NCBI GenBank assembly: GCA_000004985.1
Contig: GG739017.1
Direction: 5' to 3' (one strand)
Source of the DNA: Naegleria gruberi
Lineage: Eukaryota
Length of the DNA: 6,783 nucleotides
Shown piece after piece: positions 2 to 6,783 of this stretch. The position numbers and the translations under genes are program-made. A model generated the notes under the pieces. It ran no database searches and was not told the origin of the DNA. It saw nothing but the letters and a program-made list of their open reading frames with translations. How positions within the stretch are numbered: the stretch's first letter is position 1; every line of letters starts with the position of its first letter.

Positions 2-529
2 GGTGTGAACTTTACAGTTTGTTGTGATTTGGTTTTAAGTAATGGAAAGGTTGGACATAATTTGGATTTTTCAAAAGAAACTCAACATGTTAAAGTGAAT
101 GTTTGTAATCCTGATTTGGTTTATCAAGGTGTTTCAAAACATCCAAGATTTACAATGGGTGCTTTCTTAGAAGCTTTGGATACTTTATTTTTCATTTCAA
201 ATGGAAAGAGACAACATTTACAATATGAATTATTTGGAAAACCACACAAAGTCACCTATGATTATGCAAAGAAAGTTTTAATTGACCAATTGAGATCCTC
301 ACATGCTGGTCATGAAGATAGAGATAATGTCGATGATATGACTATTTATGCAATTGGTGACAATCCATTGAGTGATATCAAAGGTGCAAATGGTGCTGGA
401 TTTGTTTCCATGTTATTGAGAACTGGAGTTTGGCAATCAAGTGAAGAAAATGATTCACAAAATCCTGCAACTCACGTATTTCCATCTGTTAGGGAAGCAT
501 TTAAATTTATTTGTGATAAACATTTATAA
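2..529 (+). CDS. C-terminal fragment (5'-truncated by the window edge) of a HAD-superfamily subfamily IIA hydrolase (NagD/CECR5/YKR070W-like); stop TAA at 527-529
   Basis: The frame is open from nt 2, and the track's M at position 5 is a GTG so the ORF continues upstream of the window. It contains the HAD-IIA motif III lysine context LFGKPHK (~233-250) and a motif IV-like IYAIGDNPLSDIKGANGAG (from ~347), followed by a hydrophobic cap and end. Codon usage matches the other genes (GAA, CAA, AGA, GGT). Confidence 0.55.
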   Translation, partial: GVNFTVCCDLVLSNGKVGHNLDFSKETQHVKVNVCNPDLVYQGVSKHPRFTMGAFLEALDTLFFISNGKRQHLQYELFGKPHKVTYDYAKKVLIDQLRSSHAGHEDRDNVDDMTIYAIGDNPLSDIKGANGAGFVSMLLRTGVWQSSEENDSQNPATHVFPSVREAFKFICDKHL

Positions 530-924: not shown

Positions 925-1140
925 ATGGGAGGAGCTGTGCCTCAATTCCAACATATGGGACAAGGTGCTCAACAAGTTCCTCAAATTCATAACCAATACT
1001 ATAACCAACAATCTCAAGCTCAACAAGGTAGGATAAACCAACTAGCCAACTCAAATAATGGCATGGGTCATTTTCAAGTTCCAATGAACAATCAACCACA
1101 AACCCAAGGAGGTGGTCATCAACCTCACAATAACTTCTAA
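925..1140 (+). CDS. Hypothetical small Q/N-rich protein (71 aa)
   Basis: ATG-initiated ORF very rich in Gln/Asn/Gly/Pro (MGGAVPQFQHMGQGAQQVPQIHNQYYNQQSQAQQ...), encoded almost entirely with CAA/AAC/GGT/CCA codons, as in yeast coding sequence. A TATTTAAAG TATA-like element lies ~110 bp upstream (810-818). Downstream of the stop are AT-rich 3'-end-like motifs (TATGTGTATAC, tandem AAATAACAAAT x2 at ~1166-1195). No recognisable domain, and an alternative out-of-frame ATG at 914 gives a 38-aa peptide. Confidence 0.25.
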   Translation: MGGAVPQFQHMGQGAQQVPQIHNQYYNQQSQAQQGRINQLANSNNGMGHFQVPMNNQPQTQGGGHQPHNNF

Positions 1141-1272: not shown

Positions 1273-1653
1273 ATGTTTATGTTTATTGTACTTGCTAACA
1301 AGGAGGGTGGATACTATGAGGAGATGGTTCCAATCCTCTCATATTTGGGAAACTCTTTAGCCCACTTGATCATGTTATATGAGCACGAGCTTCAGCATAG
1401 TGAGTCCTTAAATGAATCACATTTTGTTAATAGTGATAACCAATTTGATAACTTAATCAACCCACTATTGGGGGAAAGTGAATTGTTTAAGTCAGCCGAA
1501 CTGTCATTAGCATTATTTAGGGAATTAGAGGAGGGAATTATTAACAAAAGAATCATCAAAACAAACAAGAGGCTTATCGTTTGTCCTAGGAGGCAAACTA
1601 TTGCAAATGATTGTTCTCTTTTCAAGGAATGCTTGAACAAAAAGTGCATGTGA
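1273..1653 (+). CDS. Hypothetical ORF (126 aa), no recognisable domain; overlaps the 3' part of the minus-strand ORF 2007..1525
   Basis: ATG-initiated ORF with no similarity recognised. GAG is used more often than GAA and AGG is frequent, unlike the confident genes here, which argues against it being real. Its last 129 nt overlap the opposite-strand 160-aa ORF, so at most one of the two is coding there. Confidence 0.15.
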   Translation: MFMFIVLANKEGGYYEEMVPILSYLGNSLAHLIMLYEHELQHSESLNESHFVNSDNQFDNLINPLLGESELFKSAELSLALFRELEEGIINKRIIKTNKRLIVCPRRQTIANDCSLFKECLNKKCM

Positions 1654-2007
1654 GCTAACGGTTTTGAAAATTAATTTATCTGGAGCTTGAAGTTGTACTT
1701 TTTCTAAGCTTTCTTTTATGTGAGGTAGACCAGATAATCCAATTACTTCCAAAAGTGGTTGATCAGTCTCAGAAAAGCTCTTTAATTTTAACATCAAGGA
1801 ATAGGTACTTGATGTTATCTCAGCTACCTGTTCCGAAAGGTGGCTCATTAAGCACCATTCGCTTACCCTGTTATCAGAGTTTTGTAACAGTGTTTTAAAG
1901 CCTTGTTTGATGATTTCCATGAACTTGCTCTTCCAACTCTGTAGTGTGAATAAGCTCATTTTTTTCAGTTTGGGCACTAACGAAAACTTTTTTTGGAAAT
2001 ATTCCAT
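1525..2007 (-). CDS. Hypothetical protein (160 aa), no recognisable domain
   Basis: True ATG at 2007 is the first in-frame ATG after an upstream stop (TAA at 2047-2049 on the minus strand). It is the longest ORF in the 1150-2500 interval, and an AT-rich putative promoter lies at 2050-2400. Codon usage is only weakly biased, and there is no motif-level identification. Confidence 0.3.
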   Translation of the reverse strand: MEYFQKKFSLVPKLKKMSLFTLQSWKSKFMEIIKQGFKTLLQNSDNRVSEWCLMSHLSEQVAEITSSTYSLMLKLKSFSETDQPLLEVIGLSGLPHIKESLEKVQLQAPDKLIFKTVSSHALFVQAFLEKRTIICNSLPPRTNDKPLVCFDDSFVNNSLL

Positions 2008-2518
2008 TAATAATAAGGCCTTATTAGTTAATTTACCAAAAGTATTTTATTTCCACAACACATGGTGGTAATTTAGTTTTGAAAATGTTTTGCATCTCAT
2101 TTGCAGTTCAATCCATTCTATCAAAGTCTGAACATACAAACTATCCATCATTACAATGATTAAAATAATTCAATAAAGTTCTTCAAAGTAAACTGATTGA
2201 ATGCGTTTTTCTGAAAGGTAATTCACACCCTTCCCGCAACTTTCGCCACCGACTCTTCTTGATGGTTTCAGGTTGTAAAGATATTGAAATAAGGAACTAA
2301 ACATGACAATGCATAGAATAAAATTAAGGCTTGAAAAATGAATTTAGAAGTAATATTTTAAATTTTAATGATGAATAATGATTTTTTTGGATGTTAAAGA
2401 GCTAGTTGTTTGATGATATATAGAACATTGTATCAATCTTTTAATATTTTACAAATGATCAACAAAAAACTTCTCATCAAACCCAGTTCCATTCTTAACA
2501 TTTTATTTTATGAAATGT

Positions 2519-4661
2519 TTAATTTACTTTCCTCACAATAAGAGGCCAACCAACTTGAATGACAACGAACTTGTGGATAGTTTTATCATTATTGCCAAGT
2601 AATTCTTGTTCTTTTTTGGCATATTGTTTAACCTTAGAACTTGCCTCATTTAAGATACTTTCAACTTTAACATATTTGTTTGCCCATTTTTGAAAAACTA
2701 GCATATTCAATAACTGGCTTTCATCAGCTTGTAATAATTCTTTAAATTTTTCCTTAAACATATAAGGTTTCCAAATTCTAATAGTAGAATATTGTGATAA
2801 ATACATTGGTCTCAAACGTTTCAATTTAATGATAAATATGTCATTGTCGGTTGAAATAACAAGGTCAGCTCTTAATTCAGTATATTCTTTTCCATTGATA
2901 TGATAATTTGTATATTCCTTTTCTGCTCTAAAAGTAAAATCTTTGCTTCTATATAAAGAATATGATCTCAATGCAGATTCAATACAAGATTGTAAACTTC
3001 TTTCAGACATATCATTGTCAAACACTGTTTCTTGCTTGCTTAAAATACTCCAAAGTAATTTTTTCAAATTATCTTGAGTTGGTTCATTAATAAAAGTTGA
3101 TATATCACTTTCACGTAAAGATATAAGTCTACGTAACTGTTCCAAATATTGAACCTTTGCAATTTCATTTGGAATTAACAATTGTTTTGGATTCATTTGT
3201 TTTGAGGATGATTCTGTGAAAGTAATCATACCATGATAATACATGAATGATAAAGCATTATCACGAATCTTTTGTATATCTTCTTCATTGGATGGTGGAT
3301 CAATAATCTCTCTTAATTTCAGTGAAGGATAAATTGACTCGGTTACTTCTATATAATCTTTTGAAAGTAATTGTTGAATAATATCATTCGATACAACTGA
3401 TGATGCCAAAGTTGCAAAAACGTTCTCACTGATCATTGTGTTGGTATCTGTTAATATTGATAATGGAATTTCTTGTTTTTGTAGAACAGCATTTCTGAAA
3501 GGTTCATCTTTTACAAGTTTGTTCAAAAAGAACATTGAAAGAGTTGTGTTGAATAGAGCATGTTTTGAACCAGGAAAATGATAACCTTTATAATACTTTT
3601 TCATGGTTGAAATGGTAATATCTTGATCATTTCCAATAATATCAATGTTATTTAATGCCATTCTCAAATCATTTTCTGTAAAACCAACCAAACCACCAAA
3701 TATCTTATCAGAGGAAATATTACTGGAAACATTATATCCAGATGCATCAGCAAGAGCAATAGGAGTGATACCAGTGATGATACTACGAAAATCTTGTAAA
3801 CCAGTAGCGGAAGACTCTTTCAATCTTTCAAAGAAAGAACGAATTGGTGAAGATGTTGGATCTCCTCTCTTTCCTTCAACTATTAATTGATATTTTTCAG
3901 GATTTTCAAATATTAATTTGTTTGCAAATCTATCATATTCATCAATTAATACCATTAATTTGCCTTTTCTCTTGACTAAAAGTTGGATAAGTTTTTGATA
4001 AGTATCAAATGAATCATTTTGATTAATGCTTACCTCACCACCCATACCATAACATTCCAAAAATCCTTCAATGGTTGTATTGATTTTTCTCATGAAGCCG
4101 TTGATTAATATCTTCCGTTGTACCATCAACTTGAATAGAAAAATCTAACTTTAAAACATGATATTGATTCTTTCCAGGTGTCCAATTCTGTTCATCACCA
4201 ATCCATAAACCAGAAAATAATTCATCAAATTCATCTTTCTTGTTAACATCATAATATAATGAAAGCATTGATAGTAATAGTGATTTTCCCCATCTCGGAG
4301 GACGAACCAAAAATAATTGATCACCTGCCTCCTCTAATCGTGGAATTAAATTAGTTTTATCAACATAAAATTGTTTACTTCTTCGGATGGAACCAAAATC
4401 TGATTTTCCATATGGAAAATATGGTACTAATAATTTTTTATCATTAATGTTGTTAAATTTAATGTTGTTATTTGTTTGTTTTAGAAATTTTAATGAATTT
4501 GAATAGTTTTTAAATTGATTAATTGTACACTTATTATTATTGATGATTAAATTATTAATTTTGAAGATTGGTGTGTTGTGCGGTGTAATTTTAGGTGATG
4601 CAGTAAATAATTGCAATCCTGATGATTTTGTGCTGATTTTACTAAGGACGTTATGTTTCAT
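2519..4661 (-). CDS. AAA-ATPase-like (Pfam PF09820 type: YVDKT ... RPxRxGKSL) protein with C-terminal PD-(D/E)XK-nuclease-like domain (PF08011/DUF1703 type) and an N/K/S/T-rich N-terminal leader; reading frame interrupted by a single-nt frameshift in the T5 run at 4084-4088 (track ORFs 4682..4068 and 4129..2519 are the two halves)
   Basis: N-terminal half: PYFPYGKSDFGSIRRSKQFYVDKTNLIPRLEEAGDQLFLVRPPRWGKSLLLSMLSLYYD is the hallmark block of the predicted AAA-ATPase family (..DF..LR..N..YVDKT...I..L......FLSRPRRFGKSL..S.L). Family-consistent blocks follow downstream: LKLDFS, LIDEYDRFANKL, YKGYHFPG, and a C-terminal GKEYTELRADLVISTDNDIFIIKLKRL that resembles the GRIDLvi....iiiEFK nuclease core. 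The first true ATG is at 4661; the track's 4682 start is a TTG, and a TGA lies just upstream in frame. The two ORFs overlap in different frames. The downstream frame opens immediately after a TAG at ~4150-4152. Removing one A from the AAAAA run yields a continuous ...DINQRLHEKINTTIEGFLECYGMGG... sequence. Confidence 0.7.
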
Positions 4662-4732
4662 ATTTTTCCATTTTTTAACCAATCTTCAAAATGACAACAT
4701 TCACTGTGAATTCTACTTTTCGGTTCGTTCAT

Positions 4733-5527: not shown

Positions 5528-5938
5528 NNNNNNNNNNNNNNNNNNNNNNNNNNNNNNNNNNNNNNNNNNNNNNNNNNNNNNNNNNNNNNNNNNNNNNNNN
5601 NNNNNNNNNNNNNNNNNNNNNNNNNNNNNNNNNNNNNNNNNNNNNNNNNNNNNNNNNNNNNNNNNNNNNNNNNNNNNNNNNNNNNNNNNNNNNNNNNNNN
5701 NNNNNNNNNNNNNNNNNNNNNNNNNNNNNNNNNNNNNNNNNNNNNNNNNNNNNNNNNNNNNNNNNNNNNNNNNNNNNNNNNNNNNNNNNNNNNNNNNNNN
5801 NNNNNNNNNNNNNNNNNNNNNNNNNNNNNNNNNNNNNNNNNNNNNNNNNNNNNNNNNNNNNNNNNNNNNNNNNNNNNNNNNNNNNNNNNNNNNNNNNNNN
5901 NNNNNNNNNNNNNNNNNNNNNNNNNNNNNNNNNNNNNN
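5528..5938. other. Assembly gap (411 N) inside the intergenic region between the divergent AAA-ATPase-like gene and the DEAD-box helicase gene
   Basis: Uninterrupted run of n from 5528 to 5938. The ORF-track entries made of X (5369..5941, 5487..6146, 5519..5986, 5524..6009) are artefacts of translating this gap. Confidence 0.99.
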
Positions 5939-6181: not shown

Positions 6182-6783
6182 ATGGTTAATAATGATATTA
6201 CCGTAACTGTAGAAGATGACTACAAGCAAAAGAGCGGAAAGGCTAGATATGAACAAAAAGAAGTTAAGGAATTTGATGATATGAATCTTAAGGAAGATTT
6301 ACTCAGAGGAATTTACTCTTATGGTTTTGAAAAGCCATCAATTATCCAACAACGTGCCATCTTGCCAATCACTACTTCTGAACCACCAGCAGACGTTATT
6401 GGTCAAGCCCAATCTGGTACTGGTAAGACTGCTACTTTTACTATTTCATTGCTTCAAAGATTAAATATTTCTCCTGATGTTATCCAACCACAAGGACTTG
6501 TTTTGGCTCCAACAAGAGAATTGGCTCAACAAATCCACAAGGTCATCATGTCATTGGGTGAATATATGAAGGTTAAAGTACACGCTTGTGTTGGTGGTAC
6601 TAAAGTTCAACACGATATTGCCATTCTTGAAGAAGGTGTCCACATTATTGTTGGTACTCCTGGACGTGTTTTCCACATGATTCAAAGTGGTCACTTGAAC
6701 GTTAACAGCATTAAGATGTTAGTTATCGATGAAGCCGACGAAATGTTGAGCAGAGGTTCAAGGATCAAATTAGCCATCTTAAG
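6182..6783 (+). CDS. FAL1: DEAD-box ATP-dependent RNA helicase, eIF4A-III / Fal1-like (N-terminal ~200 aa; 3'-truncated by the window edge); apparent 1-nt deletion at 6755-6758
   Basis: Translation gives ...[33 protein letters not shown]... (Q-motif), [22 protein letters not shown] (Walker A / motif I at ~6401-6430), [13 protein letters not shown] (motif Ia), [19 protein letters not shown] (motif Ib) and [11 protein letters not shown] (DEAD / motif II at 6728-6739). LLRGIY(S/A)YGFEKPS, GTPGRVF and DEADEML match eIF4A-III/Fal1 rather than canonical eIF4A (VRGIFGYG). Strong yeast-optimal codon bias. It is not in the ORF track because it has no stop inside the window. Confidence 0.85.

Follow-up and report, generated by a model that had tools for sequence, protein, structure and literature searches.

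A predicted mitochondrial import signal on an unannotated second DUF1703-type AAA+/PD-(D/E)XK gene of Naegleria gruberi

The acid-free N-terminus of a DUF1703-type protein encoded in the genome of Naegleria gruberi is predicted to be, most likely, a mitochondrial import signal. An earlier note on the same DNA had proposed a mitochondrial targeting presequence, and that proposal stands in part: it agrees with the leaders of eukaryotic relatives, with the absence of a leader from bacterial proteins and with the evolutionary constraint on the leader itself, whereas the leader of this particular copy, taken alone, appears to be a weak presequence, because it contains no arginine and its amphipathicity is no better than that of shuffled sequences. 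The case for a mitochondrial presequence rests on the comparison with relatives.

The window, that is, the whole stretch of DNA analyzed here, is an entire 6783-bp scaffold of N. gruberi NEG-M (Heterolobosea). The yeast origin considered in the earlier note does not hold, as the best matches are to Naegleria and Willaertia and a neighbouring open reading frame is 100% identical to NAEGRDRAFT_76529. The gene (2519-4661, minus strand; Table 1) ends with a TAA stop at 2519-2521. Since a stop codon lies in frame upstream of the Met1 codon (ATG, 4659-4661, minus strand) and the second in-frame Met is residue 132, within the conserved core, translation must begin at Met1; the earlier translation from the first ATG (4661) was reproduced exactly. 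That note had also spoken of a "corrected protein", and a correction is indeed required, the open reading frame being split by a 1-nt insertion in the A5 run at 4084-4088; the frame-corrected product has 713 amino acids. An intron was excluded as the cause of the split, as the protein alignment is contiguous over the junction. A second apparent homopolymer indel is present on the same scaffold, in an eIF4A-like gene, which makes an assembly error a possible cause of the frameshift. Scans of the window for tRNA genes and Rfam families found nothing.

Table 1. Positions of the gene and of the features discussed in the text (window coordinates; residues of the frame-corrected protein)
Feature	Residues	Position	Strand	Basis
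Whole gene, DUF1703-type AAA+/PD-(D/E)XK protein		2519..4661	(-)	ORFs, homology
In-frame TGA, 9 codons 5' of Met1		4686..4688	(-)	fixes start codon at 4659-4661
N-terminal extension (proposed presequence plus linker)	1-79	4425..4661	(-)	absent from bacterial homologues; dN/dS 0.26
Acid-free stretch	1-73	4443..4661	(-)	translation
K51-N-Y-S54, candidate MPP/Icp55-type processing motif [RK]-x-[FY]-S	51-54	4500..4511	(-)	alignment; function inferred
AAA-ATPase_like domain (PF09820)	83-305	3746..4415	(-)	E 2e-41, 142.4 bits vs gathering cut-off 26.1
Deviant Walker A, RPPRWGKS	120-127	4281..4304	(-)	alignment; DUF1703 motif per PMC1913061
A5 run with 1-nt insertion (GAG AAAAA TC; A4 needed), ORF split	K192/I193	4084..4088	(-)	paralogue comparison
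Walker B, LIDEYD	238-243	3932..3949	(-)	alignment; PMC1913061
PD-(D/E)XK motif II region, RADLVI	597-602	2855..2872	(-)	alignment; motif II Asp present
PD-(D/E)XK motif III region, IIKLKR	610-615	2816..2833	(-)	alignment

In the database searched, no gene model is at least 90% identical to the window protein, and by its sequence the gene is an unannotated second N. gruberi copy, a paralogue of NAEGRDRAFT_78045 (P0002). Aligned over its full length (100%) with NAEGRDRAFT_78045 and with a close relative of the latter, P0001, which is encoded on contig L001, the corrected protein shows 76-79% amino-acid identity. All have the same architecture and length, begin with MKH, contain the LQLFTASPKI block and the KNYS motif, and carry ...GWPLIVRK at the C-terminus. 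Homology at the DNA level with contig L001 covers exactly 2518-4667, thus beginning 6 nt upstream of the ATG. That contig is a separate locus with no neighbours in common with the window, and the possibility that the window holds an allelic or syntenic copy of NAEGRDRAFT_78045 was rejected on the unrelated neighbours of this related contig. An exact search with the 197-aa open reading frame of the window matched no contig. The window copy differs from both others in that it alone has the frameshift and a Lys, K612, instead of Glu, and from NAEGRDRAFT_78045 in having no arginine in its leader, against four. Divergence between the window copy and the paralogue is uneven (dS 0.6-1.1 in the leader and the C-terminal third, 0.016-0.07 in residues 201-400), and such near-identity of one segment next to strongly diverged ones suggests gene conversion between the copies.

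The DUF1703 family combines PF09820 (AAA-ATPase_like) with PF08011 (PDDEXK_9) and carries the Walker A motif RPxRxGKS and the Walker B motif DEYD; its published description names bacterial and archaeal members only (Knizewski et al. 2007, PMC1913061). In agreement with the earlier description of an AAA-ATPase-like protein of bacterial type, the window protein matches PF09820, and it has both Walker motifs in common with bacterial and archaeal DUF1703 proteins, to which it is about 30% identical in alignments that cover roughly 60-88% of the length. Like the rest of the eukaryotic clade, it differs from them by additional insertions, such as one between motifs III and IV, and by a C-terminal domain that lies below the reach of the PF08011 model: at E <= 0.01 there is no PF08011 match in the window protein, and no eukaryote-type homologue has one on record. 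In motif III, K612-L-K614 replaces E-x-K, in a column where at least 90% of the sequences in an alignment of 25, the paralogue included, have Glu. With the frameshift and this Glu-to-Lys replacement, the window copy may not yield a functional product, and it may be nuclease-inactive or a young pseudogene. An AF2 model of the paralogue P0002 (pTM 0.78) has its best Foldseek matches in ORC, Cdc6 and RFC (E 1.7e-5 and up), so that the predicted fold, as judged on this paralogue, is that of an initiator/clamp-loader-type AAA+ protein. The AAA+ ATPase domain of the protein is Orc/Cdc6-like, and a PD-(D/E)XK-like nuclease domain lies at the C-terminus. PADLOC and NCBIfam scans of eukaryotic and bacterial representatives gave no matches, and a sequence-profile search of the PDB returned nothing at E <= 1.

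The acid-free N-terminus is real, yet shorter than the approximately 78 residues once reported: acidic residues begin not near residue 80 but with D74 (codon 4440-4442), inside the interval that had been described as acid-free, so that the stretch measures 73 residues. The conserved core, PYFPYG, begins at residue 80. Residues 1-73 comprise 16 Asn, 10 Lys, 9 Ile, 7 Ser, 6 Leu, 6 Thr, 5 Phe and 2 His, with no Arg, Asp or Glu, and the leader has a single Ala. As expected of a presequence, the extension is at the extreme N-terminus, 5' of the core, with 79 residues compared to a bacterial median of 5.5, and its acid-free part carries a net charge of +10, a property partly explained by its G-poor composition. 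It is not, on the other hand, Arg-rich and enriched in Ala, Leu and Ser, as Lys, Asn and Ile dominate. The coding strand of the leader has 5% G and 48% A, only 3 of its 73 codons begin with G, and FYMINK residues account for 58% of its amino acids versus 35% elsewhere in the protein; the lack of acidic residues is in part due to this A-rich, G-poor low complexity. Whether the acid-free state exceeds chance depends on the null chosen, the probability of finding no Asp or Glu in 73 residues being 3.5e-5 with the composition of the remaining protein, 0.014 with the intergenic base composition and 0.15 with the base composition of the leader itself.

Bacterial homologues had been said to start directly at the core, and this is borne out: the 74 bacterial-type homologues have a median of 5.5 residues before it, only two have at least 20, and the bacterial proteins are in this sense leaderless. 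The comparison of orthologues that the earlier note had proposed gave the opposite picture for other eukaryotes, whose orthologues and paralogues retain a basic, acid-poor or acid-free N-terminal extension, 24-80 residues long in nearly all eukaryotic relatives. The eukaryotic clade comprises Naegleria, Willaertia, Clydonella, Balamuthia, Nuclearia and Amoeboaphelidium, and in a midpoint-rooted NJ tree the eukaryote-type sequences fall on one side. Complete N-termini with extensions of at least 20 residues are present in 33 eukaryote-type sequences, and 20 of these have no acidic and at least three basic residues in the first 25. Many of the extensions have the look of classical matrix presequences (for example MLVRRVFAGHRFLSTTT, MLSVRRGAVVPRFARGAGFPRLMSTTA and MFPVFFRRVALSSAALRRFAATRA); further textbook-like cases occur in Balamuthia, Nuclearia and metagenomic relatives, and the extensions of distant homologues are rich in Arg, Ala and Ser. 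One eukaryote-type subclade (P0027-P0030, P0036 and P0037) has acidic N-termini, unlike presequences.

The amphipathicity of the window leader (maximum helical hydrophobic moment, muH(11), 0.46) was equalled by 694 of 1000 shuffles (69%); the leader of the paralogue reaches 0.74, matched by 137 of 1000 shuffles, and that of Willaertia 0.875, matched by 31 of 1000. The sole conserved block among the otherwise divergent leaders of the heteroloboseans Naegleria and Willaertia is [RK]-x-[FY]-S, which reads KNYS in the window, NAEGRDRAFT_78045 and Willaertia, RSFS in N. fowleri, and RKFS and RRFS in N. lovaniensis. The window version has Lys where the MPP-type motif R-x-[FYL]-[SA] (Arg at -2/-3) has Arg.

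Fifteen N. gruberi proteins listed in a published proteome of the mitochondria (PMC8134430, Suppl. Data 2) served as a reference set. In these the first acidic residue lies at positions 24-76, the leaders abound in N, S and T, and 5 of the 15 have R-x-F-S near the end of the leader. Long acid-free, N/S/T/K-rich N-termini are shared between the window protein and proteomics-supported presequences of the same species (for example HslU, Mgm101, DNA ligase, XP_002680798 and a Pet127-like protein), which differ in their enrichment for Arg, Ser, His and Cys, whereas the window leader has only Lys and more Asn and Ile. It is for the latter reason that its composition score, 0.10, falls in the lower half of the range of the positives (-0.13 to 0.37), by a classifier that is crude, having been built with 15 positives and 6 negatives; the score is nevertheless above the maxima of the 6 non-presequence N-termini (0.034) and of the 35-aa windows in the mature part of the same protein (0.066). 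The accession and peptide strings of NAEGRDRAFT_78045 had no match in the part of Suppl. Data 2 that was searched (Horváthová et al., PMC8134430), a literature search found no mention of this protein, and the family is unmentioned in the Andalucia mitochondrial proteome paper.

The leader evolves under purifying selection, with a dN/dS of 0.26 (Sd 16 of 39 sites versus Nd 23 of 168; Fisher p 3.7e-4), and none of its five indels relative to the paralogue-type copy shifts the frame. In the AF2 model of the paralogue, residues 1-73 have pLDDT values below 50, with a helix drawn at residues 2-12 at low confidence, and the fold starts at about residue 74, which places the leader outside the predicted fold. 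These data bear on the alternative that the leader is an AT-driven, Asn/Lys/Ile-rich, low-complexity disordered tail without a targeting role, acid-free by virtue of a G-poor strand. The base composition, the FYMINK excess, the ease with which the leader's own bases yield an acid-free stretch, the shuffle-like amphipathicity, the absence of Arg and the disorder seen in the model would all suit such a tail. A neutral tail would not, however, show this dN/dS and exclusively in-frame indels, nor a motif conserved between genera; bacterial relatives are wholly tailless, and in homologues from GC-richer organisms the corresponding position is taken by extensions rich in Arg, Ala, Leu and Ser, for which AT bias cannot account. 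We consider this alternative unlikely.

It is also rather improbable that the copy in the window has become a pseudogene or non-functional duplicate, with a leader that is the decaying relic of the NAEGRDRAFT_78045 presequence and no targeted product. The frameshift, the replacement of a near-invariant motif III Glu, the loss of all four arginines of the paralogue's leader along with the weaker amphipathicity, and the missing gene model are what such a history would leave behind; against it, the reading frame is intact across 713 codons apart from the single frameshift, itself a possible assembly error, and the divergent segments give a dN/dS of 0.18-0.41 relative to the paralogue-type copy, below the expectation for a copy that has long been neutral. 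We regard it as highly improbable that the extension directs the protein to the nucleus or nucleolus, to peroxisomes (by PTS2) or into the secretory pathway: the leader is basic and Lys-rich, and several mitochondria-linked N. gruberi proteins co-fractionate with peroxisomes (PMC8134430), but the leader has no PTS2 match and no NLS-type cluster (at least 4 K/R in 6 residues), its maximum Kyte-Doolittle(15) value of 0.49 argues against a signal peptide or transmembrane segment, and the C-terminus (...VRKVN) is not PTS1-like.

The explanation that we favour, and hold to be moderately probable as a whole, is that of a nuclear DUF1703 gene whose product carries a matrix presequence, is cleaved near KNYS and becomes a mature matrix enzyme. 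For a protein of the window type we infer that the basic, acid-free and hydroxylated N-terminus would be recognized by the TOM/TIM23 import route, that a processing peptidase would remove the leader near K-N-Y-S, or near R-x-F-S in the proteins of sister species, some 25 residues ahead of the folded core, and that the mature enzyme would serve in the matrix as an ATP-dependent nuclease or as a protein that handles nucleic acids. As for the role in mtDNA metabolism mentioned in the earlier note, one may speculate that such an enzyme could have it. MGME1 is a nuclear-encoded, presequence-bearing mitochondrial PD-(D/E)XK nuclease that acts, or has been proposed to act, on mtDNA. The protein predicted here would resemble it in joining a presequence to a PD-(D/E)XK nuclease proposed for mtDNA, and differ from it in that MGME1 is of a different family and without an AAA+ module.

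If the leader works as predicted, the "bacterial/archaeal DUF1703" family would gain a eukaryotic branch inside the mitochondria of free-living amoeboid protists, a candidate ATP-driven nuclease would join the mitochondrial nucleic-acid toolkit, and one more patchily distributed bacterial gene would have been recruited to the organelle. For the locus itself the practical gain is smaller: a gene copy that had escaped annotation, and likely homopolymer errors in a small scaffold of the reference assembly, are brought to notice. More tentatively, and with doubts that we would not hide, a monophyletic and patchy eukaryotic clade of DUF1703 AAA+/PD-(D/E)XK proteins, bacterial in origin and fitted with presequences, might represent an unrecognized mitochondrial ATP-dependent nuclease acting on mtDNA or on mitochondrial selfish elements, with N. 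gruberi possessing two gene-converting copies, one of them nuclease-dead. So read, the clade would extend over heteroloboseans, discosean amoebozoans, nucleariids, aphelids and uncultured protists. The relatives of Naegleria concerned include pathogens, N. fowleri and Balamuthia.

The acid-free N-terminus of the AAA-ATPase-like protein is, on sequence grounds, best explained as a mitochondrial presequence, and this explanation is a reasonably probable one. The earlier note, which had made the suggestion, was mistaken in taking the host for a yeast, since the DNA is a whole small scaffold of Naegleria gruberi NEG-M and its ORF at 5–529 is 100% identical to NAEGRDRAFT_76529. It was essentially right about the leader itself: its translation is identical, letter for letter, to the ORF read from the first ATG, and the conserved core does directly follow the leader, although the first Asp/Glu, placed at about residue 80, is D74, so that the acid-free run comprises 73 residues. 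Met1 is the sole workable start, because an in-frame TGA lies upstream and the second in-frame Met is residue 132, within the conserved core. That the presequence reading is the best supported is owed mainly to the N-termini of homologues rather than to the leader's own properties.

Features of the window, with strand and remarks
Feature	Position	Strand	Remark
HAD-hydrolase-like C-terminal part	5–529	+	PF13242; relatives labelled TIGR01456 family; runs past scaffold start
ORF without assigned function	925–1140	+	71 aa, Gln/Asn/His-rich
ORF without assigned function	1273–1653	+	126 aa
ORF without assigned function	1525–2007	-	160 aa
Motif III (ExK) of PD-(D/E)XK	2816–2833	-	reads IIKLKR
A5 run with one extra A	4084–4088	-	GAG AAAAA TC; splits ORF
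Core PYFPYGKSDF	from 4424	-	begins at residue 80
First acidic residue	4440–4442	-	D74
Acid-free run	4443–4661	-	residues 1–73
First ATG	4659–4661	-	Met1
In-frame TGA	4686–4688	-	nine codons 5' of Met1
N run (scaffold gap)	5528–5938		411 bases, between divergent AAA+ and eIF4A-like genes
eIF4A-like DEAD-box ORF	6182–6783	+	extends past scaffold end

Residues 1–73 include 16 Asn, 10 Lys, 9 Ile, 13 Ser+Thr, 2 His and no Arg (net charge +10). The probability of finding no Asp/Glu is 3.5e-5 under the composition of the remaining protein, 0.014 under intergenic base composition and 0.15 under the leader's own base composition, its coding strand being 5% G and 48% A with G-initial codons at 3 of 73 positions; as the chance level varies with the null, a presequence and A-rich low complexity are inseparable by composition alone. 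Of the signals for other compartments, none was found in the window protein (PTS2, PTS1, an NLS-like cluster, a signal peptide). Compared with the copy of the type of NAEGRDRAFT_78045, the N. gruberi paralogue, the leader has dS 0.59, dN 0.15 and dN/dS 0.26 (changes at 16 of 39 synonymous vs 23 of 168 non-synonymous sites; Fisher p 3.7e-4), and the lengths of its five indels are all divisible by three. In the AF2 model of the paralogue (pTM 0.78, mean pLDDT 81.7), pLDDT is below 50 for residues 1–73 and the fold begins at about residue 74. Together, the dN/dS, the in-frame indels, the start of nucleotide homology just 5' of the ATG and this low pLDDT indicate that the leader is translated, constrained and outside the enzyme fold.

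Bacterial-type homologues start at the core, as had been stated, with a median of 5.5 residues ahead of it and at least 20 in only 2 of 74. In an NJ tree with midpoint rooting the eukaryote-type homologues lie together on the same side of the root, and nearly all of the complete ones have an N-terminal extension of 24–80 residues. Among 33 eukaryote-type sequences with complete N-termini and extensions of at least 20 residues, 20, including five isoforms of one Clydonella gene, have no acidic and at least three basic residues in the first 25. A subclade (P0027–P0030, P0036, P0037) has acidic N-termini that are not presequence-like and may represent mis-modelled metagenomic genes or non-organellar paralogues. 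Many of the extensions look like textbook presequences, among them MLKVVRKVLPFHRLSSTAP, MLVRRVFAGHRFLSTTT, MLSVRRGAVVPRFARGAGFPRLMSTTA, MMRSAAVTAARSWFRSAAAPAARAFSHA, MLHRLPSLRAMTTAKVLQPAVRATK (Nuclearia), MLGQQWSPLRTQFVKRITISPPPLCFSRHVFSF (Balamuthia) and MFPVFFRRVALSSAALRRFAATRA. The Naegleria and Willaertia leaders are highly divergent, and their sole common aligned block is [RK]-x-[FY]-S, present as KNYS (window, 78045, Willaertia), RSFS (N. fowleri) and RKFS or RRFS (N. lovaniensis), a candidate MPP/Icp55 processing site of the 'R-3' form.

The leader was also compared with 15 N. gruberi proteins listed in the published mitochondrial proteome (Suppl. Data 2 of PMC8134430). Their first acidic residue lies at positions 24–76, two of them at 73 and 76, close to residue 74 of the window protein, and at 2–18 in six N-termini without presequence from the same table. 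A crude log-odds composition score gives 0.10 for the window leader, against -0.13 to 0.37 for leave-one-out positives, at most 0.034 for these non-presequence N-termini and at most 0.066 for 35-aa windows taken from the mature part of the same protein. Five of the 15 reference leaders contain R-x-F-S. NAEGRDRAFT_78045 was not found in the examined part of the table.

The data also allow that the window copy is decaying. All four Arg of the paralogue leader have been lost, the best helical hydrophobic moment is weak (0.46, equalled by 69% of shuffles; paralogue 0.74, Willaertia 0.875), and the A5 frameshift is joined by K612, a Lys (AAA) replacing the near-invariant Glu of motif III, which is Glu in all other aligned homologues save Asp in Willaertia. 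Long-standing pseudogenisation is, however, at odds with an ORF intact apart from the frameshift and with dN/dS of 0.18–0.41 across divergent segments. Removal of one A yields a 713-aa protein with gapless alignment over the junction, which excludes an intron as the cause of the split. The extra A may itself be an assembly error, since a second apparent homopolymer indel occurs on the same scaffold: in the eIF4A-like ORF near 6755–6759 the frame reads SRIKLAIL and FKDQI, expected from the eIF4A consensus, resumes in another frame, probably because one T is missing from a T run (GGTTC for GGTTTC) 30 nt before the scaffold end, hinting at homopolymer errors on this scaffold.

As no gene model at least 90% identical was present in the protein database searched, the window copy is unannotated. 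A Naegleria contig with a 78045-type gene (L001) matches the window at 2518–4667 only, and its neighbours are unrelated, which favours a paralogue over an allele; nucleotide homology starts 6 nt 5' of the ATG. The promoter region of the AAA+ gene is incomplete because of the intergenic N run. Between the two copies (2519–4661; L001 3179–5293), dS is 0.6 in the leader, 0.07 at residues 201–300, 0.016 at 301–400 and 1.1 at 601–713, a mosaic which suggests that the central part may have been exchanged by recent gene conversion between paralogues. P0001, a metagenome protein, also resembles a 78045-type gene with a window-type segment at about residues 193–240.

The corrected protein matches Pfam PF09820 (AAA-ATPase_like; 142 bits, residues 83–305). 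Its Walker A, RPPRWGKS, is of the deviant type and, like its Walker B, LIDEYD, agrees with what Knizewski et al. (2007, PMC1913061) described for the DUF1703 family, in which an AAA+ module is joined to a PD-(D/E)XK domain at the C-terminus. The predicted family function is that of an ATPase and probable nuclease; PF08011 was undetected in eukaryotic members, and PADLOC, NCBIfam and PDB sequence searches gave zero matches. The closest relatives, both aligned over the full length, are P0001 (ENA; 79% identity) and NAEGRDRAFT_78045 (76%), followed by N. fowleri, Willaertia magna and N. lovaniensis. Named hosts of eukaryote-type homologues are Heterolobosea, Amoebozoa (Clydonella, Balamuthia) and Holomycota (Amoeboaphelidium, Nuclearia), a patchy range compatible with an ancient origin followed by losses as well as with transfer between eukaryotes. 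All of these (Naegleria, Willaertia, Clydonella, Balamuthia, Nuclearia, Amoeboaphelidium; homologues P0017, P0041, P0179, P0180) are free-living amoeboid or phagotrophic protists. A presequence is an ordinary feature type, here on a protein of bacterial type that has been little studied; what may be new is a eukaryotic DUF1703 clade directed to an organelle. In the literature searched, neither NAEGRDRAFT_78045 nor a branch of the family in eukaryotes or in mitochondria is mentioned.

Elsewhere in the window, Pfam searches of the 71-aa and 160-aa ORFs gave zero matches, and the NAEGRDRAFT_76529 model covers 124 aa of an open frame of 174 aa.
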